Of a DNA stretch of 64,000 bases, positions 12,460 through 20,057 are shown in pieces. The notes beneath the pieces were generated by a model. It had not been told where the DNA came from, did no database searches, and saw only the letters and a program-made list of their open reading frames with translations. Each line of letters opens with the position of its first letter. The first letter of the stretch is position 1. This DNA comes from Promethearchaeia archaeon (GTDB lineage Archaea; Asgardarchaeota; Lokiarchaeia; Sigyniarchaeales; SOKP01): assembly GCA_029856155.1 (NCBI GenBank), contig JAHQWL010000102.1, positions 1-64,000 on the forward strand. The letters run 5' to 3'. The position numbers were made by a program, and so were the translations under genes.

Positions 12460-13653
12460 ATGACTTATATTGATAAAGATAAGTTACGAGCATTATTCAA
12501 ATGGTATATGCAAGAAGTAGGAGATATTTTAGTTTCTGTTCTTTTAGTTGACCGAGACGGATTAATAGTTAATATTTTAACGAGAGATTCTGATAAATTA
12601 GATGAAAAAAAATTTGTTGGGGCATTTAGTTCTTTAGTTGAATTAGTACTAAAAAAATTAACACAAGATTTTGATCTTGGAACCTTTGGTGCGGGCACAT
12701 TTGATACAAATAAATACAGATTTATTTTTTGTGAATCTGGATCGGAACATGTTCTAGTCTCAATACTCAATCATACTGCCTTAGTTGATGATATATTTCC
12801 ATATACTTATTTAACTGCTGATAAAGTAGCAAGGATTATCGATGGAGAACTACCAGTCAGCCCTGTGATTCCAAAAGTAAAAAGAGATACTGAACTTGAA
12901 AAAATTAAGCGAAAAATGGAATATTATCAAAGTAAGCCTCACTCACCTGAGTATGTCTATAAACTTTCTTTGATCGGAGATGGTGGAGTGGGAAAAACTA
13001 GTATGGCTCAAAGATATGTTCATGGAATATTTAATGCAGATTATAAAGCAACCATTGGTACTTATATCTCTAAGAAAGAATGTGAATTTAAAGAATTGGG
13101 AACGTCTATCAGATTTATGATATGGGATTTAGCGGGACAAAGTCAATTCGAAAGATTATGGCCAGATTATTTAACAGATTCTCGTGTGGGAATCATAATT
13201 TTTGATATAACAAACCTCGAATCATTTAAGCATATAAAGAAATGGCATGATATAATTAAAAGAGTTGCATTGCCTCATATTGTTTTAATTCTTGTTGGAA
13301 ATAAAGTTGATTTAAAAGATTCTAGAGTAGTATCAACGGAAAAAGGTATGAATTTAGCCAAAGAATTAGGCATTTATTATATGGAAACCTCTGCAAAGAC
13401 TAATCAAAATATTGAAGAAGTTTTTGAATGGATTGCACTCCAAATTATCAACCAAAATATTGAAGATGTAAAAGACAATTTATTTGATAAACAAATTGAA
13501 GAAGGAATTAAATATGTAATTTCAAGTCCGCAATTAAAGATATTAAATCAATATTTTACTAAACAACTTGATTATTGTATTGGAAAGAGTGGTACTACAG
13601 AAATTATTAAGTATTTAGATATATTAAAAGCAATTGAAAAAAATAAGTTATAG
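12460..13653 (+). CDS. Roadblock/LC7-like domain fused to Rab-like small GTPase
   Basis: N-terminal LLVDRDGLIV roadblock pattern; GDGGVGKT, WDLAGQ, GNKVD, ETSAK. Confidence 0.85.
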   Translation: MTYIDKDKLRALFKWYMQEVGDILVSVLLVDRDGLIVNILTRDSDKLDEKKFVGAFSSLVELVLKKLTQDFDLGTFGAGTFDTNKYRFIFCESGSEHVLVSILNHTALVDDIFPYTYLTADKVARIIDGELPVSPVIPKVKRDTELEKIKRKMEYYQSKPHSPEYVYKLSLIGDGGVGKTSMAQRYVHGIFNADYKATIGTYISKKECEFKELGTSIRFMIWDLAGQSQFERLWPDYLTDSRVGIIIFDITNLESFKHIKKWHDIIKRVALPHIVLILVGNKVDLKDSRVVSTEKGMNLAKELGIYYMETSAKTNQNIEEVFEWIALQIINQNIEDVKDNLFDKQIEEGIKYVISSPQLKILNQYFTKQLDYCIGKSGTTEIIKYLDILKAIEKNKL

Positions 13654-13670
13654 AGCAATTTAGTAACATA

Positions 13671-16559
13671 TTAATCATTTATATAAAGAGCGGGCTTGAA
13701 CGGTTTTGCTCTTGTAGATCTTTGTTTTGGATCAAAATCAGAATTAATTACAATCAAGGAATTTACTCGTTTTTCTATATAAGATTTATAATGATTAAGT
13801 AATTCAACTTCTTCTACTTGTAGCCATTGTTTTTCCCATATTCGGTCTCTTAATTGACTATTTATAAAAGGTACGAGTTCTTTATTACTAATCAACTTAC
13901 TATCTTTTTTTATCTCAGACATTATATCATTAAAATTCCCTTTTTTTGATATTATTAAGTCTGAAGTTTTATACTTCCACCTAGGAGCCGTATATAGATT
14001 TATTTCACCAGATTTCAGTGATTTTATGATTTTTTTTATACTGAAAATATCCTCAATAACATTTGAGATATAATCGAATTCAAGTTCAAGGTTGTTATTA
14101 ATATAGTGTTTATTAAAGTCTCCCCAAATTACTTTTGATATTAATCCAATGTTTCCGGAAAATTCCCACAATTCCTCGCATATATGAGGTAGTGTTAAGG
14201 AAAGCATTTTTAACCAATCCTCATAAACTAATTTAAATACTATTAGAAAATCATCTATATTGTCAGTATCTCTATAAAATTCCTGTACTAGATTAAAAAT
14301 CTCATAAAATGAAGTTTGAAGATATCTCCTTATATTGTATTCTTCTAAAGCTTTTTGAGCTTCAATAAATCTTTTAATAATTTTAGAAAGTATCACTCTT
14401 GAATATTTAGATTTAATAGTTCCAAATTTAGCGTCAATTTTTTTTGATTGCTCGATTTTATCAGAAATAAAAGTATAAAATTTGAATATGTGATTTTTAA
14501 CCGTCTCTATTTCTTTTTGTCGAAAATCCATATAAACACCAAAATCCGCACCATGAGATATATAGAATCTAAATAAATCAGCAGAATATTTTTTTTTAAT
14601 ATCTGCAAGAGGAACCACGTTTCCTTTTGATTTACCCATTTTCTGGCCTTCTACATTGACTGGTTCGATTAAACTAATAATTTTTGGCCAATGTTTTTCT
14701 GGAAAAATAGCAACATGATGAAATATGTAAAAACTCAAATGATTGGAAATGTGCATTATTGCAGTATGGCGATGGTCAACTGGATACCAATATTGGAACT
14801 CTTCCTGCATTTCTTTAAGGATTTTCTCTTCAATATTGATTTTTTTTGATAGTGTAGTCACATCTCTTTTCTTTAAGAGTACAAAATCAAAGAAATCTGG
14901 AATTAACTGTTCTGGTTTAATTTGATATTCTATTATTTTATGTGATATTGTATAGAATGCCATGTATATTGTCGAATCGCTTAGAGATTCTATTATCCAC
15001 TCGTTATTGAAAGGCAATTGTGTCCCTAGACCCCTCTTTCTTGCGCAGGGTCTTTTTTCAAGCCATTTAAAAATATTTTCAAAATTTAATCGATACTTAT
15101 TAGGTATAATTTTCATGTTATTAAGACATTCAAATGCATTCTTTTTCCAATCTCCCGCATTAAAATTAAGAAACCACTGATCCTTTAGAATGGAAACTAT
15201 AATGTTAGCACCACATTTGCATCTAAGGTTTTTAGTAACCGGAATAAATAATTTATCTGCTCTATTCTCTTTGATTAAATCTTCTGAAACCTGTTTGGCC
15301 GCATCACTAACTTTCATTCCTTGGTATTTACCACATTTATCATTAAGAAATCCATTATAAAATTCATTTTTATAATTCTCACTTGTTGCTAAATCTAGTT
15401 CTTCTTTGTCTTTTTGAGAATCGACATTATATTTCTCACAGTAAATTTTTGCAGGAAAATCTTTGAAGCCTTTTAATTCGATAATCTGAATTGGATAAAT
15501 TAATTCGGTTTCTCTTTTATCTAAATTAAATTCTTCAGTTAGTTCTGTATCTTTTTGCAAATCAATTAGTGCTATGTAATCATAAGGAGCATGAGCTGGA
15601 ACTGAATAAACCACACCAGTAGCTGTAGCTGTATCAACAAAATCTCCGGGTAAAATCGGAATTTCTTTAATTCCATAGACATCTCTAGCCTTTTTACCAA
15701 CAATTTTACTTCCTTTAAAATTATCTAATACTTTAATCTCTTTATTTTGATTTTCTAACAAGTGGGTTGCTTCCTCGGAGATAAACCATATTTCTCCATT
15801 TATATTAGCCTTAATATAATCTCCATTTGGTTTTATCCATATATTTGTGATTCCATATATTGTTTCTGGTCTTAATGTTGAAGCTATAAGAAAACCATCC
15901 TCAAAAGGGAATTTTATACAAATAAATTCATTAATATTAAGGTCTAATTCATCCCCACTAACAATATCGTCCTCACCTACGGCATTATCATCTCGTGGGC
16001 AATATAAAATTGGATATTCACCTTTTTCAATATATCCCTTTTCATTTAAATGATAATATTGCCATTCGATGAATTTATTATAGATTTTGTCTCCAGTCGT
16101 AAATTCTCTTCTCCAGTCCAAACTCATACCAATTGATTTAAAATCCATTTTAATAGTGTTAGAAAAGTATTTTACAATATTCCAAGGATCTACAAAACTA
16201 TCAACAATTTCATCTACTCTTTTCTGATCTTTAGTATGTAATAATACGTATTCTTTCATCCTAGTTATTTGTATTTGATCCCCTCTTTCTATAGATGAAG
16301 AAATTGCTAAAACTGGAGTTCCTGTTATATGAAATGCCATAGGATATAACACATTATATCCTTTCGCCCGATAATATCGAGCAAATATATCTCCGTTAAC
16401 AAAACTCCTCCCATGACCTATATGAGTAGGACCTGAAGCATATGGATAAGGAGAGGTAATAAATATTTTCTCTATTTTCTTATCTGGATTTGCTTCGAAT
16501 ATTTTCGTTTCTTCCCACTTATCCTGCCATTTCTTTTCAATTTCTTGTGGATTATACAT
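13671..16559 (-). CDS. leuS: Leucyl-tRNA synthetase (archaeal type)
   Basis: HIGH and KMGKS signatures; TLRPET editing domain; C-terminal AKPFKPALYI. Confidence 0.95.
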   Translation of the reverse strand: MYNPQEIEKKWQDKWEETKIFEANPDKKIEKIFITSPYPYASGPTHIGHGRSFVNGDIFARYYRAKGYNVLYPMAFHITGTPVLAISSSIERGDQIQITRMKEYVLLHTKDQKRVDEIVDSFVDPWNIVKYFSNTIKMDFKSIGMSLDWRREFTTGDKIYNKFIEWQYYHLNEKGYIEKGEYPILYCPRDDNAVGEDDIVSGDELDLNINEFICIKFPFEDGFLIASTLRPETIYGITNIWIKPNGDYIKANINGEIWFISEEATHLLENQNKEIKVLDNFKGSKIVGKKARDVYGIKEIPILPGDFVDTATATGVVYSVPAHAPYDYIALIDLQKDTELTEEFNLDKRETELIYPIQIIELKGFKDFPAKIYCEKYNVDSQKDKEELDLATSENYKNEFYNGFLNDKCGKYQGMKVSDAAKQVSEDLIKENRADKLFIPVTKNLRCKCGANIIVSILKDQWFLNFNAGDWKKNAFECLNNMKIIPNKYRLNFENIFKWLEKRPCARKRGLGTQLPFNNEWIIESLSDSTIYMAFYTISHKIIEYQIKPEQLIPDFFDFVLLKKRDVTTLSKKINIEEKILKEMQEEFQYWYPVDHRHTAIMHISNHLSFYIFHHVAIFPEKHWPKIISLIEPVNVEGQKMGKSKGNVVPLADIKKKYSADLFRFYISHGADFGVYMDFRQKEIETVKNHIFKFYTFISDKIEQSKKIDAKFGTIKSKYSRVILSKIIKRFIEAQKALEEYNIRRYLQTSFYEIFNLVQEFYRDTDNIDDFLIVFKLVYEDWLKMLSLTLPHICEELWEFSGNIGLISKVIWGDFNKHYINNNLELEFDYISNVIEDIFSIKKIIKSLKSGEINLYTAPRWKYKTSDLIISKKGNFNDIMSEIKKDSKLISNKELVPFINSQLRDRIWEKQWLQVEEVELLNHYKSYIEKRVNSLIVINSDFDPKQRSTRAKPFKPALYIND

Positions 16560-16629
16560 TTTTTTTTAACACAATCTTGACTTTTCTGTTCTTTATTTCA
16601 ACTCGAATCCTTTTTTGAGTTATCAACCG

Positions 16630-16725
16630 CCTATATTCTTTTTCAATTAAATTTACCAGCCAAGCAAACAAATCCATGGAAAAGGTAAAAGAAAAAGAGT
16701 ATAGGGATTTGTTTCGCTCAAGATA
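16630..16725 (-). promoter_or_regulatory. Structured leuS 5' leader with two interleaved inverted repeats
   Basis: A 16705-16719 pairs with A' 16661-16675; B 16691-16705 pairs with B' 16630-16644 (14/15 bp); B is a pyrimidine/U-rich tract in the mRNA. Confidence 0.65.
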
Positions 16726-16777
16726 ATAATAAAACTGCGAGTAAATACACTAAAGATATTTTTTCCTTTAGGTTCAT
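16718..16777 (-). CDS. Putative Leu-rich leader peptide MNLKEKISLVYLLAVLLLS
   Basis: 7 Leu in 19 codons, including TTA-TTA-TTA just before the last codon; upstream of leuS and downstream of a TATATATA box (~16817-16824); alternative in-frame ATG at 16804. Confidence 0.6.
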   Translation of the reverse strand: MNLKEKISLVYLLAVLLLS

Positions 16778-17003
16778 CTTTAAAGCAGTCTTATTTGAAT
16801 TCATTCTTATAAAGATTATATATATTTTTATATTAAAATATTTCTAGGATCTTGAGTCATATTTTATTAATCCAATAGAATATAGAAGATAAGGCTAAGA
16901 TTTAATTCTTTTGCGATAACTCGTTTTTAGAAAATAGTACAAATTGTTAAATATATCCTTTTATTTCATTTTTTAGTGCTTCATTTAAAATAATACTAAT
17001 TAT

Positions 17004-20000
17004 TTGAAAGAAATTGGGGTTAAGTATATCGTGAAAAATATTACTACACGTAATAAACTTAAAGTTGATTTTGAAAATAACGATAAACTATGGCAAATAA
17101 CTCTTGATGCAATGAGTGAATCTGTTTTTCTCATTGATTTAGAGCATAAAATCCTCCAATGTAATAAAGCAACTTTAGATATTTTGGGAAAGTCTAATTT
17201 CAATGAAATTATAGGCCATTCTTGTTGGGAACTAGTGCATTGTACTACAGCACCAATTAATTGGTGCCCCGTTAACCGTATGAGGCAAACGGGCCAAAGA
17301 GAGTCTACAGTTCAGATTTTAAACGGTAGATGGGTTGAAATTTCTGTAGAACCCGTTTTCAGTGATGAGGGAGAGATCACTGGAGCTGTTCATATCATTA
17401 CTGACATTAGTGCCCGAAAAAAAGCAGAAGATGATCTAAGTGAATCAGAACAGCAATATCTCACAATTCTTAATTCTTTAAGTGATGCTATGCATGTGGT
17501 GGATAGAGATTTAAAAATCATATTCCAAAATCCCGCTATGATTCAATGGCTCGAACAGTTGAATTTAAGTTCTGATCTTATAAGTAAGACCATTTTCGAG
17601 GCATTTCCTTTCTTAGATTATAATAAAGTCTATAATGAATATGATAAAGTCTTCAATGATAGGGAACTTCTAATCACTACAGAAGCTGTCAAACTATTTG
17701 ATCGAAATGTATTTACTGAGACTATAAAAATTCCAATGATTAGGGAGGGTGAAGTTAGCCATATTATTACTATTTTAAGGGATATTACTGATCAAAAGGA
17801 AGCTGAACAAAAACTAAGAGCTTCTGAAGAAAAATATCGATATTTAATTGAAAATGCATTTGAAGGAGTATGGGTTATAGATTCAAATGCTGATACAGTT
17901 TTAGTTAATCCTAGTATGGCACATATTTTAGGTTATTCTGCAGAGGAAATGATTGGAGAATCTTTATTTTCTTTTATGGATGAAAAAGCAGTTAAAATTA
18001 CTAAAAACCATTTAGAAAAACGAAAACAAGGTATCTCTGAGGAACGAGATGCTGAAATGATTCATAAAAATGATAAAAAAGTCTTTCTAAGAATAAGACC
18101 AACTCCTATATTTAACCATCTCGGGAAGTATGAAGGAACCTACGCTTTTCTAGCAAATATTATACAGAGAAAATCGGCTGAGCAAAAGTTGAAAGAATCT
18201 GAAAAGAAATTTAGAAATCTATTCGAAAATTCTCCTAATATAATAATACTTTTAGATCAAAAAGGTGTCATCCTGGATTTTAATCAATTATTTCTAAATA
18301 AATTTAATTTTGAAAAGAAAGAATTAGTAGGGAAGGATTTTCGTGATATTCTTAGGATTAATTCAGGGAATACCTTAACTGCCGTTGAACAATATAAAAA
18401 ATTAATACAGAATGGAAAAGTAGAACCTTTTGAATTAGGAATAACAAATGTAGAAGGAAAGCAGGTATGGATCAATCTTCAGGCTTCCGAAATTGAAATA
18501 GGTAATCAACATATTATACAAGTAATATTACAAGACATTACGGAAAAAAAGTTTGCTGAAACTGAATTAAAAGAATCTGAAGAAAAGTTCAGGATTATTG
18601 CTGAACAGTCATTTATGGGCATAATAATATTACAAAATGGAGTTTTTAAATATTTTAATGAACAAGCAGCTAAAATGAATGGATATTCAATGGAAGAAAT
18701 ACGAAATTGGGAACCGTATGAATTTCAAAAACTTATTTATCCAGATGATAGAGATTTTGTTATGGCACAAGTACGAAAAAAACAAGCTGGTGAACCAGAT
18801 GTTTTTTCTCATTATCAATATAGGGTTATAAAGAAAAATGGAGAAGTAATTTGGGTTGAAAATTTTTCAAAGACAATAAACTACGGAGGAAGACCTGCTG
18901 ATTTTGTGATGACAATTGATATTGATGACAAAATAAAATCAGATCAGAAATTAAAGGAATCTGAAGAAAATTTCAGAACTATTGCGGAGCAAGCTTTTAT
19001 TGGAACCTTAATAATTCAAGATGACAAAGTGGAGTATGTGAATAATGCTTTGCTGCAAATTTTTGAATATTCTCATGAGGTAATAGATAATTGGAGAAAA
19101 AATGACCTAATCAAACTTATTTACCCTGAAGATTTACAATATTTGAGAGAATATCGCAAAAAATTACGTGCTGGTGAATCTGACATAAAAGAATATTATT
19201 CTTATAGAGTGTTCACTAAATATGGTAAGATAAAATGGATTGATCAATTCTCAAGACCTATTATTTATCGAGGACAACAAGCAGAAATAGTTACCATCAT
19301 GGATATAACTGAAAAAAAGAAAGCTGAAGAAGAATTAAGAAAACTTAACACATTAAAGTCCGAACTTTTAAGAAGAACTTCTCATGAGTTGAAAACACCG
19401 CTTGTTTCAATTAAGGGTTTTTCTGATCTCTTGTTAACAGTACATAAAGACAAATTGGATGATTATGTACTAGCTACTATTCATGAAATAAAGCTTGGAT
19501 GTGAGAGGTTAGAAAATCTTATTCAAGATATTTTAAAAACAGCTGAATTAGAATCTGAATCCGTTGAACTAAAAAAATCTGAAGAAGATATATCATTTTT
19601 AATAAAATTATGCGTTAAAGAATTACAGGGCTTAATAAGGTTAAGAAATCATAATATAAACTTAGAAATTCATGATAAGTTGATAACTAGATTTGAACCA
19701 GACCAAATCCATCTTGTTTTGAGTAATTTACTCAATAATGCAATAAAATATACTCCTCCTAATGGAAAAATTAAAATTAAAACTGATCAAACTAATGATA
19801 CTATTTTAATTTCAATACAAGATAATGGAATCGGAATAACCAATGAAGAAAAAAAGAGATTATTTTCCCAATTTGGTAAAATTGAAAGATATGGACAAGG
19901 ACTTGATATTATATCTGATGGTTCTGGATTAGGATTATTTATAACTAAAAAAATAATAGAATTACATGGTGGAAAGATATGGGTTAGATCTAAAGGGAGG

Positions 20001-20057
20001 AACAAAGGTTCCACTTTTTATTTTACTCTCCCATTAATTACACAAAATAAAGAGTAA
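17004..20057 (+). CDS. Large multi-PAS (about 6) sensor histidine kinase
   Basis: Repeated PAS/PAC units joined by LKESEEKFR linkers; SHELKTPL; DNGIG; GSGLGL. Confidence 0.9.
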   Translation: MKEIGVKYIVKNITTRNKLKVDFENNDKLWQITLDAMSESVFLIDLEHKILQCNKATLDILGKSNFNEIIGHSCWELVHCTTAPINWCPVNRMRQTGQRESTVQILNGRWVEISVEPVFSDEGEITGAVHIITDISARKKAEDDLSESEQQYLTILNSLSDAMHVVDRDLKIIFQNPAMIQWLEQLNLSSDLISKTIFEAFPFLDYNKVYNEYDKVFNDRELLITTEAVKLFDRNVFTETIKIPMIREGEVSHIITILRDITDQKEAEQKLRASEEKYRYLIENAFEGVWVIDSNADTVLVNPSMAHILGYSAEEMIGESLFSFMDEKAVKITKNHLEKRKQGISEERDAEMIHKNDKKVFLRIRPTPIFNHLGKYEGTYAFLANIIQRKSAEQKLKESEKKFRNLFENSPNIIILLDQKGVILDFNQLFLNKFNFEKKELVGKDFRDILRINSGNTLTAVEQYKKLIQNGKVEPFELGITNVEGKQVWINLQASEIEIGNQHIIQVILQDITEKKFAETELKESEEKFRIIAEQSFMGIIILQNGVFKYFNEQAAKMNGYSMEEIRNWEPYEFQKLIYPDDRDFVMAQVRKKQAGEPDVFSHYQYRVIKKNGEVIWVENFSKTINYGGRPADFVMTIDIDDKIKSDQKLKESEENFRTIAEQAFIGTLIIQDDKVEYVNNALLQIFEYSHEVIDNWRKNDLIKLIYPEDLQYLREYRKKLRAGESDIKEYYSYRVFTKYGKIKWIDQFSRPIIYRGQQAEIVTIMDITEKKKAEEELRKLNTLKSELLRRTSHELKTPLVSIKGFSDLLLTVHKDKLDDYVLATIHEIKLGCERLENLIQDILKTAELESESVELKKSEEDISFLIKLCVKELQGLIRLRNHNINLEIHDKLITRFEPDQIHLVLSNLLNNAIKYTPPNGKIKIKTDQTNDTILISIQDNGIGITNEEKKRLFSQFGKIERYGQGLDIISDGSGLGLFITKKIIELHGGKIWVRSKGRNKGSTFYFTLPLITQNKE

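Follow-up and report, generated by a model that had tools for sequence, protein, structure and literature searches.

A leucine-rich short ORF and a predicted two-state RNA fold upstream of an accessory leuS gene in an Asgard archaeon suggest ribosome-based amino-acid sensing

Does an archaeon use a leader peptide to sense leucine? The question is raised by the region upstream of leuS in a Promethearchaeia archaeon (GenBank assembly GCA_029856155.1, contig JAHQWL010000102.1), of which we analysed positions 1 to 64,000, hereafter the window. A preliminary description, made from the sequence alone, proposed an attenuator-like leader: a 19-codon Leu-rich upstream ORF located between a TATA box and leuS, a long stem starting at the last codons of this ORF, a U-rich loop complementary to a downstream segment, and ribosome stalling at Leu codons deciding whether a U-tract terminator is exposed. 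To answer this question, we re-examined each of these features in the window and in related genomes.

All the features described were found in the sequence, so that the observation holds, with two corrections. The 19-codon ORF runs from ATG 16777-16775 to TGA 16720-16718 on the minus strand and contains 7 Leu, including TTA TTA TTA. The stem includes a 10-nt perfect inverted repeat (16714-16705 / 16675-16666), which extends to about 16 bp, and the U-rich segment 16705-16691 is complementary to 16644-16630 at 14 of 15 positions. However, an in-frame ATG further upstream (16804-16802) is invariant in 19/19 same-genus orthologues, whereas the ATG initially proposed, which is Met10 (16777) of the longer frame, is lost in about 8 of them. 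The conserved short ORF (sORF) therefore has 28 codons plus TGA (16804-16718, minus strand; sense codons 16721-16804). In addition, the conserved TATA box is TTTTAATATAA at 16838-16828 and not the TATATATA at 16824-16817. It is preceded by a purine-rich BRE-like stretch and lies 34 nt before the sORF ATG.

The downstream gene (13671-16559, minus strand) was identified by Pfam and NCBIfam profile searches as leuS, encoding an archaeal-type leucyl-tRNA synthetase of 962 aa (TIGR00395 leuS_arch, 932 bits against a cut-off of 648), with HIGH and KMGKS motifs present. The genus has two LeuRS types, while the other families of the order mostly have only the 931-aa type; the window gene is an accessory, second LeuRS. 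The canonical leuS has an ordinary short upstream region. All 19 same-genus genomes with the window-type leuS carry the element, as does one genome (G013) with a more distant accessory LeuRS, whereas the 5 genus genomes without an accessory LeuRS lack it.

We then asked whether the sORF is conserved as a coding unit. It is open, 27–29 codons long, with the same start and stop positions in 19/19 orthologues; all three indels are multiples of 3, and Leu positions are kept through synonymous changes (TTA/TTG/CTA; CTC/CTT/CTG). In the window it has 8 Leu and the tail ..LLAVLLLS, so that its last eight sense codons hold five Leu. The Leu-rich tail is kept in all 19 orthologues, as are the stop codon at the foot of helix A:A′ and the competing helix B:B′ that pairs the U-tract (both described below). 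Variation at third codon positions is only slightly higher than at first and second positions (0.25 against 0.19). To go further, a covariance model of the element was searched in the 151 genomes of the order and found it in 87, all in one family of Promethearchaeota (Lokiarchaeia-type Asgard MAGs). Among 90 distinct copies, 89 have an ATG-started sORF of 20–32 codons. The TATA box is invariant or nearly so in the 19 genus orthologues; in 56 leuS-class copies, 40 have an 8/8 TATA match, at −34 (37 copies) or −31 (13 copies) from the ATG, and all classes show the same geometry. From this spacing alone, transcription would start at or within a few nt of the ATG and the sORF is probably leaderless. 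No conserved TATA box lies between the element and leuS (0/56 perfect matches, scattered positions), although a weak A/T-rich TATA-like segment 39–44 nt before leuS in about 36/56 copies could be a secondary promoter.

The RNA following the sORF start contains three helices. Helix P0 pairs codons 4–7 of the sORF (16785-16795, AAUAAGACUGC) with 16728-16738 (GCAGUUUUAUU). It was obtained as an RNAalifold consensus. Across the family its cognate arms pair at −15.6 kcal/mol against −10.9 for non-cognate arms (82/89 better), and G.U pairs favour the sense strand. Its 3′ arm overlaps the Ala-Val-Leu-Leu codons of the run, so a translating ribosome would have to melt it, but part of the codon repetition could then serve RNA pairing. 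Arm A (16705-16721, UUGAGCGAAACAAAUCC) begins inside the last sense codon and the stop codon and pairs with arm A′ (16660-16675, GGAUUUGUUUGCUUGG). This helix is 92% paired in the genus and in the family, where 12 of the 13 pairs of its main run have compensatory changes, and the A:A′ hairpin is −13.4 kcal/mol in the window and −16.0 on average over 90 copies. Arm B (16683-16705, CCUAUACUCUUUUUC, then UUUUACC) carries the conserved U-tract. It is either the loop of hairpin A:A′ or the 5′ arm of a more stable helix with arm B′ (16630-16644, GAAAAAGAAUAUAGG), whose pairing hides the U-tract. For B:B′, the genus shows 5 pairs and 12 cells with compensatory change (0/500 shuffles), and the family 11 of 14 pairs. 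B:B′ forms in 90/90 copies when arm A is masked and in the unconstrained minimum-energy fold of 80/90. A:A′ and B:B′ thus compete, although their coexistence as a partial pseudoknot is not excluded. In the minimum-energy fold of the extended region, a weak outer closure (A″, 16615-16629) appears, in which CUCAA at 16619-16615 pairs with UUGAG at the stop codon, extending B:B′ into one long hairpin. Its support is modest (cognate −8.3 against non-cognate −7.2 kcal/mol, 56/89 better) and we retain it as optional.

The single-sequence fold is only mildly unusual (z −1.97), but the comparative data are decisive: across the 90 copies, 26 of 30 base pairs show compensatory changes and all five measures of covariation beat 500/500 shuffles. 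The position of the sORF relative to these helices is also constrained. The stop codon starts 3 nt before the invariant G of arm A in 73/90 copies, and the last L/I/V codon is the last or next-to-last sense codon in 87/89. A ribosome at the stop or at the last codons of the run would cover arm A.

The RNA scaffold is shared by the family, but the peptide tail follows the downstream gene. Tails have 57% Leu and 1% Ile before leuS (56 copies, at least 5 genera, two LeuRS clades), 40% Ile before genes for an FrhB-TrmB fusion, and 49–67% Val with 0% Ile before a small protein or an acyl-CoA dehydrogenase-ETF operon. Specificity would lie in the ORF and not in the RNA. The genes behind the Ile and Val versions have no proven tie to those amino acids, and since the classes are paralogous lineages, the peptide-to-gene link rests on a few evolutionary events and not on 90 independent ones. 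Moreover, a fourth class, which includes the second copy in this genome, has an sORF with only a short ..VVVL tail or no run at all, so the scaffold does not always need an amino-acid run.

An independent analogue was found in the same genome. The leuA-leuC-leuD-leuB operon has a non-homologous leader ORF ending in seven Leu, kept in 29 of 30 relatives with runs of 4–7 Leu, and followed 3–7 nt after the stop by a long hairpin (mean −20.8 kcal/mol, z −4.0). These values come from per-sequence folds, since RNAalifold on a MAFFT alignment of the leuA leaders, as on one of the FrhB-class downstream regions, gave no consensus because the alignments were poor.

Where could transcription end? A U-run of 5 or more is present in arm B in 68/90 copies, and of 4 or more in 83/90, whereas runs of 5 or more are rare in the A′–B′ spacer (11/90) and after B′ (10/90). 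These counts rule out a bacterial-type terminator hairpin directly followed by U's, and the U-tract inside the switch is the only U-run kept across the family. It is the candidate archaeal termination signal: aCPSF1, including a Lokiarchaeota orthologue, binds terminator U-tracts (PMC8716108), and T-runs of 5 or more follow 48% of long ORFs in this genome against 17% inside coding sequence. Control by hiding the leuS ribosome-binding site is not predicted, since the mean unpaired probability of positions −14 to +3 around the leuS start is 0.59 without and 0.54 with a ribosome footprint on the run and arm A.

Taken together, segment 16838-16615 is best explained as the promoter and 5′ leader of an accessory leuS gene, most likely working as a ribosome-sensed leucine attenuator (probability about 0.6). 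In this view, A:A′, whose arms are transcribed before B′, forms first and leaves the U-tract single-stranded in a roughly 30-nt loop. When charged tRNA-Leu is scarce, the ribosome would linger on the terminal Leu codons and cover arm A; B:B′ would then form, the U-tract would be hidden from the termination and cleavage machinery (intrinsic oligo-U signal together with aCPSF1/FttA), and RNA polymerase would read on into leuS. When Leu-tRNA is plentiful, the ribosome would terminate and leave, A:A′ would display the U-tract, and most transcripts would end or be cut before leuS. What our analysis establishes is the conserved ORF, its amino-acid-specific composition, the promoter geometry, the two conserved, covarying and competing helices and the family-wide link to downstream genes; translation of the ORF, its expression and response to leucine supply, co-transcription with leuS, the role of the U-tract as a terminator and the polarity of the switch are inferred from sequence. 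One difficulty is timing: intrinsic termination at the U-tract would happen before A′ and B′ are transcribed, so that the switch could act only through a later step (factor-dependent cleavage or termination, or RNA processing), which is an assumption. The interpretation initially proposed is supported: conservation of the uORF, its Leu enrichment and the pairings in relatives, which had been set beforehand as a test, came out clearly positive. The Ile-rich or Val-rich ORFs carried by the same scaffold before other genes, the unrelated poly-Leu leader before leuACDB and the absence of a conserved TATA box between the element and leuS also support it, while the specific claim that stalling decides whether the U-tract is exposed remains inference.

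The alternative that survives best, although unlikely, uses the same parts with opposite polarity. A ribosome reaching the stop codon in time (Leu-tRNA plentiful, tight coupling) would mask arm A, B:B′ would hide the U-tract and leuS would be read, whereas a ribosome stalled further upstream, or no ribosome, would leave A free, A:A′ would display the U-tract and transcription would end. The accessory LeuRS and the other controlled genes would then be switched on by amino-acid abundance. Since the stop codon abuts arm A in 73/90 copies, a terminating ribosome covers A at least as well as a stalled one; a stall at Leu codons 21–22 of the window sORF would leave A free; and such logic would suit catabolic-looking targets such as the acyl-CoA dehydrogenase-ETF operon behind a Val-rich copy. 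However, the run sits at the very end of the ORF in 87/89 copies, where a stall masks A. The leuACDB leader has the same layout of run, stop, then hairpin, and this biosynthetic operon has to switch on under Leu shortage. More LeuRS when Leu-tRNA is already plentiful also makes little physiological sense.

Somewhat less likely still, the sORF could be an independent small hydrophobic-peptide gene (a micro-protein or type I toxin-like peptide), with the long hairpin and U-tract as its own terminator or stabiliser, leuS transcribed from its own weak promoter and the neighbourhood inherited rather than regulatory. In favour of this, the N-terminal part (M-x-S-N-K-T-A..) is fairly well conserved as well, the U-tract about 25 nt after the stop looks like an ordinary archaeal terminator, some copies precede only small ORFs, and the weak TATA-like segment before leuS is present in many copies. 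But the hydrophobic tails, of 8–13 residues made almost only of L, I and V, are too short to span a membrane (about 18 residues or more). A generic hydrophobic peptide in a 30% G+C genome should mix Ile, Phe and Val, yet leuS-class tails have 1% Ile and 1% Phe. The element keeps its position before leuS in at least 5 genera and two LeuRS clades and occurs only where the accessory leuS occurs, and a plain terminator does not explain the conserved, covarying A′ and B′ downstream of the U-tract.

Finally, a scaffold acting itself as sensor (a riboswitch for an amino acid or metabolite, a T-box-like tRNA sensor, or an operator bound by LeuRS or another protein), with an ORF that is incidental or only tunes folding, would fit an RNA strongly conserved at nucleotide level, more so than many codon positions, a fourth class without a run and a topology compatible with a pseudoknot, but is the least likely, since no Rfam 15 family, T-box and tRNA included, matched 16000-17500 on either strand beyond chance level (E 1.9 or worse with hits allowed up to E 10, far below the gathering scores) and none reached gathering level in 5 paralogous loci, the same scaffold stands before unrelated genes while the tail changes with the gene, and the ORF is kept open, with in-frame indels and a fixed start and stop, in 89/90 copies.

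How does this leader compare with described systems? Enterobacterial leader-peptide attenuators (leuL of the leu operon, ilvL/ivbL, trpL, and pheST among aaRS genes) have, as is inferred here, a short translated leader ORF with a run of cognate codons, alternative, mutually exclusive pairings chosen by ribosome position and a target tied to the amino acid, here LeuRS, and leuACDB for the second leader; a Leu-only version exists beside mixed Ile/Val/Leu versions, as with leuL against ilvL. They differ in host domain, in having no sequence homology to the present element, in their hairpin-plus-U-run terminator and in their consecutive helices (1:2, 2:3, 3:4), whereas here the sORF is probably leaderless, the helices are interleaved (A-B-A′-B′), the U-tract is the loop of one fold and an arm of the other, and the run sits at the extreme C-terminus next to the stop. 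The mycobacterial leaderless poly-Cys sORF attenuators ('Cys ribulon'; Canestrari et al., bioRxiv 10.1101/834739) share with the reading proposed here a leaderless sensory sORF as first cistron, a run of one amino acid and several loci of one design forming a ribosome-directed regulon. There, the stalled ribosome frees a sequestered ribosome-binding site, whereas the leuS start region, predicted to be equally open in both states, points to termination or processing; the amino acids (Leu/Ile/Val against Cys) and the domain of life also differ. T-box riboswitches upstream of bacterial leuS and other aaRS genes have the same physiological target and logic, coupling aaRS expression to tRNA charging through a leader that switches fold, but bind uncharged tRNA directly and have no ORF.

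Leader-peptide attenuation is textbook bacterial regulation and depends on coupled transcription and translation. We found no published archaeal case in the literature searched, and a 2026 cross-domain review of termination does not use the word 'attenuation'. If the present reading holds, archaea, here the Asgard relatives of eukaryotes, use the ribosome as an amino-acid sensor on nascent mRNA, have built this sensor on oligo-U/aCPSF1-type termination instead of bacterial hairpin terminators, and have retuned one scaffold to Leu, Ile or Val simply by changing the codon run. A bolder and more tentative possibility, slightly less likely than not, is an archaeal 'ribulon': a family of leaderless sensory mini-ORFs, with Leu-, Ile- and Val-specific versions, sharing one scaffold that, by ribosome position, displays or hides an oligo-U signal for aCPSF1/FttA, controlling here a second LeuRS alongside the unrelated poly-Leu leader of leuACDB. 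This would be the first ribosome-mediated transcription attenuation in Archaea. The element, of about 220 nt, also gives a compact, mutable test object to ask how tightly archaeal ribosomes follow RNA polymerase, whether RNA structure can gate factor-dependent termination, and why these archaea keep a second, separately regulated LeuRS.

Some further observations concern the genomic context. The element is not a mobile (MITE-like) repeat: the intergenic region is unique in the genome by BLAST, and the covariance model gives 1–3 hits per genome, each before a defined gene class. No tRNA genes lie behind the copies that lack a long downstream ORF. A second ORF after B′, overlapping the leuS start, was seen in the window only and is not conserved by eye in the genus alignment. 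Behind the Ile-class target, MeaB follows in one genome but not in another, so that no conserved operon is claimed. A genome-wide scan for TATA-spaced sORFs with at least 7 of the last 10 residues L/I/V gave 23 hits, of which only the leuS and leuA leaders sit before amino-acid-related genes, the rest looking like noise.

leuS lies on the minus strand at 16559-13671 and encodes a bona fide archaeal-type leucyl-tRNA synthetase, as judged from its TIGR00395 score (932 bits against a cut-off of 648) and from the presence of the HIGH and KMGKS motifs. It is transcribed divergently from a gene for a PAS histidine kinase (17004-20057, plus strand), which leaves an intergenic region of 444 nt. On its other side, a gene for a 397-residue Ras-family small GTPase (12460-13653, plus strand), with weak Roc, Arf and Gtr1/RagA matches, is convergent with leuS and ends 17 nt from its end. 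In eukaryotes, LeuRS signals leucine to Rag GTPases.

All the features listed for this intergenic region in a preliminary description were recovered: a 19-codon ORF (ATG at 16777, TGA at 16720-16718) with 7 Leu and three consecutive TTA codons, a long stem whose 5′ arm starts at the stop codon (perfect 10-nt core, 16714-16705 with 16675-16666) and a U-rich loop (16705-16691) complementary at 14 of 15 positions to 16644-16630. The observation thus held, although both the start codon and the TATA box had to be corrected. The region is unique in the genome and matches no Rfam family. Folded alone, it is only mildly more stable than shuffled sequences (z -1.97). The single sequence therefore decides nothing and the case rests on comparison.

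To define the element more precisely, we fetched the orthologous leuS loci of 18 other species of the genus and aligned their upstream regions. A block of about 220 nt is far better conserved than the 60 nt just before leuS. The ATG initially assigned to the ORF is lost in about 8 of 19 species, whereas an in-frame ATG located 27 nt upstream (16804-16802) is invariant. The ORF starting at that ATG is open in all 19 species, has 27-29 codons and stops at the same place. All three indels inside it are multiples of three and Leu positions are kept through synonymous changes (TTA/CTA/TTG; CTC/CTT/CTG). The invariant TATA box TTTTAATATAA (16838-16828) starts 34 nt before this ATG. Since the archaeal TATA box is usually centred about 26-27 nt before the start site, transcription is predicted to start at or a few nt before the ATG, which would make the ORF a leaderless mini-gene. 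The TATATATA sequence initially taken as the TATA box (16824-16817) lies between the two and is not conserved outside the genus.

Three RNA helices are supported. The first, P0, pairs codons 4-7 of the ORF (16795-16785) with its Ala-Val-Leu-Leu codons (16738-16728). The second, A:A′ (16721-16705 with 16675-16660), is 92% paired in the genus. The third, B:B′ (16705-16691 with 16644-16630), has five pairs and twelve cells with compensatory change in the genus, a level reached by 0 of 500 shuffles. On a model-based alignment of 90 distinct family members, 26 of the 30 pairs of A:A′ plus B:B′ show compensatory change, all five measures exceed 500/500 shuffles, and slid controls fall to about half the pairing. 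An alignment-free test gave the same answer: each 5′ arm pairs better with its own 3′ arm than with arms from other members (P0, -15.6 against -10.9; A:A′, -16.0 against -13.4; B:B′, -15.1 against -11.3 kcal/mol). In addition, G.U pairs make P0 and B:B′ more stable on the sense strand than on the antisense strand.

A and B are contiguous and the arms are interleaved (A-B-A′-B′). The two full helices therefore cannot both form, although a partial pseudoknot is not excluded. A:A′ averages -16 kcal/mol and is made first. B:B′ is the ground state: it is present in the unconstrained minimum-energy fold of 80/90 members, and in 90/90 once arm A is masked.

To determine how widespread the element is, we built a covariance model of its core. 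This model finds one good hit in the genome of the window and hits in 87 of 151 genomes of the order, all in one family (86/131) and in seven genera. A broader model finds nothing outside that family in a phylum-wide sample (17/25 against 0/126). These genomes are Promethearchaeota/Promethearchaeia MAGs, that is, Lokiarchaeia-type Asgard archaea. Some of them carry two or three copies. We fetched 60 more loci and tabulated 90 distinct copies; individual loci are designated below by L numbers. The copies share a common layout: the TATA box at -34/-31, an ATG-started ORF of 20-32 codons (89/90), a stop codon 3 nt before the invariant G of arm A (73/90) and a hydrophobic run that ends at the last or next-to-last sense codon (87/89). 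A few copies look decayed or orphaned (L079, from contig C141 of genome G118, and L112/L119): their ORF has no run or only 20 codons, and no co-directional gene follows within 500-900 nt.

What differs between copies is the run, and it follows the downstream gene. In the 56 copies located before leuS, which come from at least five genera and two LeuRS clades, the last 12 residues are 57% Leu, 13% Val, 1% Ile and 1% Phe (for example ..LLAVLLLS). In the 17-18 copies that precede a gene for an FrhB-like/TrmB fusion protein, the tail is 40% Ile (for example ..SIIIIIVVVIII). In 8 copies that precede either a gene for a protein of about 42 residues with a strong Shine-Dalgarno or an operon for acyl-CoA dehydrogenase plus ETF beta/alpha, it is 49-67% Val and 0% Ile (for example ..VVVVDVVVVLL). 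The Ile-class elements (L072-L078, L082, L083, L087-L090, L105, L114, L118, L129 and L130) precede a gene of roughly 480 codons, whose product fuses a ferredoxin/FrhB-like (F420 hydrogenase beta subunit family) domain with a C-terminal TrmB-type HTH, possibly a redox- or flavin-sensing regulator. In one genome a MeaB GTPase gene follows, and in another a convergent gene.

In a genome with 30% G+C, a merely hydrophobic tail should be full of Ile and Phe, so near-pure Leu before leuS argues for selection on Leu itself. However, the classes are paralogous lineages, so the association rests on a handful of events, and P0 overlaps the run, so RNA pairing also constrains those codons. Moreover, in a fourth class, located before a gene for a protein of roughly 50 residues, the ORF has only ..FIPVVVL or no run at all. 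This class includes the second copy in the genome of the window (contig C26, 199005-199125, plus strand; loci L132 and L154), a weak member of the family (E 0.2 with covariance model R2) which has a TATA box, a 28-codon ORF without any L/I/V run, A/A′/B/B′ arms and a downstream 52-residue protein with a YYKDW motif; its relatives of this class end in ..FIPVVVL. The elements of the Val class (L081, L084, L086, L108, L125, L128, L131 and L143) and of the fourth class (L145-L151) are followed by two families of very small conserved proteins behind strong Shine-Dalgarno sites, one of 41-45 residues ending in ..(F)KPAE(L/M)(Y/F)I.E..IAW and the other of 45-64 residues with ..ILDYYKDW..AP..(E)SEDQ..YLR.KY.

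Independent support came from the leu operon. We scanned the whole genome for TATA-spaced short ORFs with L/I/V-rich tails. Besides the leuS leader, this returned a 33-codon ORF ending in seven consecutive Leu, 90 nt before a four-gene operon identified with NCBIfam as leuA, leuC, leuD and leuB (contig C26, about 84914-89640, minus strand; in the coordinates of the extracted locus L235, short ORF 5634-5533, leuA 5445-3823, leuC 3788-2514, leuD 2496-1978 and leuB 1978-914). This ORF has no sequence similarity to the leuS leader and neither covariance model hits it. In 29 of 30 leuA loci from ten genera of the family, an ORF of 26-41 codons ends in 4-7 consecutive Leu, the thirtieth locus being cut by a contig end. 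A long hairpin of variable sequence starts 3-7 nt after the stop in every case (mean -20.8 kcal/mol, z -4.0). This is the classical place for a Leu leader peptide, and it shows that the lineage uses the layout ‘terminal Leu run, stop, hairpin’ on a gene set that must be induced by Leu shortage.

The comparative tests set in the preliminary description were passed, and its reading of the element as an attenuator is supported and gains strong new support from these data. While the parts described so far are established by the comparison, their mode of action, including expression, termination and the polarity of the switch, is inferred. The only U-run kept across the family is the one in B (5 or more U in 68/90 copies). 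Oligo-U tracts are the archaeal termination signal; aCPSF1 binds them through its KH domains and cleaves the transcript, as has been shown with a Lokiarchaeota orthologue as well (PMC8716108). T-runs are enriched right after genes in this genome. In the most likely mode of action, we propose, the ORF would be translated as soon as it emerges. With ample Leu-tRNA, the ribosome would terminate and leave, A would pair with A′ as soon as A′ is made, the U-tract would be presented in a 30-nt loop and the transcript would then be terminated or cut before leuS. With scarce Leu-tRNA, the ribosome would sit on the terminal Leu codons with its leading edge covering the stop codon and the base of A, so that A:A′ would be weakened; the more stable B:B′ would then form and hide the U-tract, and leuS would be transcribed. 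Timing is a real difficulty for this scheme, since purely intrinsic termination at the U-tract would precede synthesis of A′ and B′, so the switch must gate a later, factor-dependent or processing step. The proposed polarity rests on physiology and on the analogy with the leuACDB leader.

Control at the level of translation initiation is not predicted, since the leuS start region is about equally unpaired with and without a ribosome on the run (0.54 against 0.59). The main argument against a riboswitch or a protein operator is that the RNA scaffold is shared while the run changes with the gene, so that any specificity must lie in the ORF. The element is not a T-box, given the absence of any Rfam match.

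In the proposed reading, the element would work like the enterobacterial leu, ilv and pheST attenuators, and like the mycobacterial leaderless poly-Cys short ORFs (bioRxiv 10.1101/834739). It lacks one defining feature of each: compared to the former it has no hairpin-plus-U terminator, and compared to the latter no sequestered ribosome-binding site. Full-text literature searches found no archaeal leader-peptide attenuator, and a 2026 review of termination signals across domains never uses the word ‘attenuation’. Regulation of this type is not established in archaea.

The LeuRS located downstream of the element is an extra copy. Most genomes of the genus encode two LeuRS types, the 931-aa type being found throughout the order and the type of the window being largely limited to this family. 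The 19 same-genus genomes that have the window-type gene all have the element, as does one further genome (G013) whose accessory LeuRS is more distant, and the five genus genomes that lack an accessory LeuRS also lack the element. The canonical leuS of the genome of the window (contig C99, 12750-13932, plus strand) has an ordinary upstream region of 150 nt. No perfect TATA box lies before the accessory leuS (0/56); a weak A/T-rich match 39-44 nt upstream in about 36/56 copies cannot be excluded as a secondary promoter. The best matches of the accessory LeuRS outside Promethearchaeota are DPANN-type MAGs (Aenigmarchaeota, Nanoarchaeota; 57-62% identity over 300 residues), above other Asgard LeuRS (about 50%), which hints at horizontal transfer. 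In the genomes sampled, the genera where the leuS leader is common mostly lack leuA (genus g1, 1/10 besides the genome of the window; genus g14, 0/11), while genera with leuA in most genomes often lack the leuS leader (genus g12, leuA 4/4 and leader 0/4; genus g15, leuA 7/7 and leader 1/7). The extra LeuRS, if controlled by Leu as proposed, may therefore go with leucine auxotrophy, although the genome of the window has both leuA and the leuS leader.
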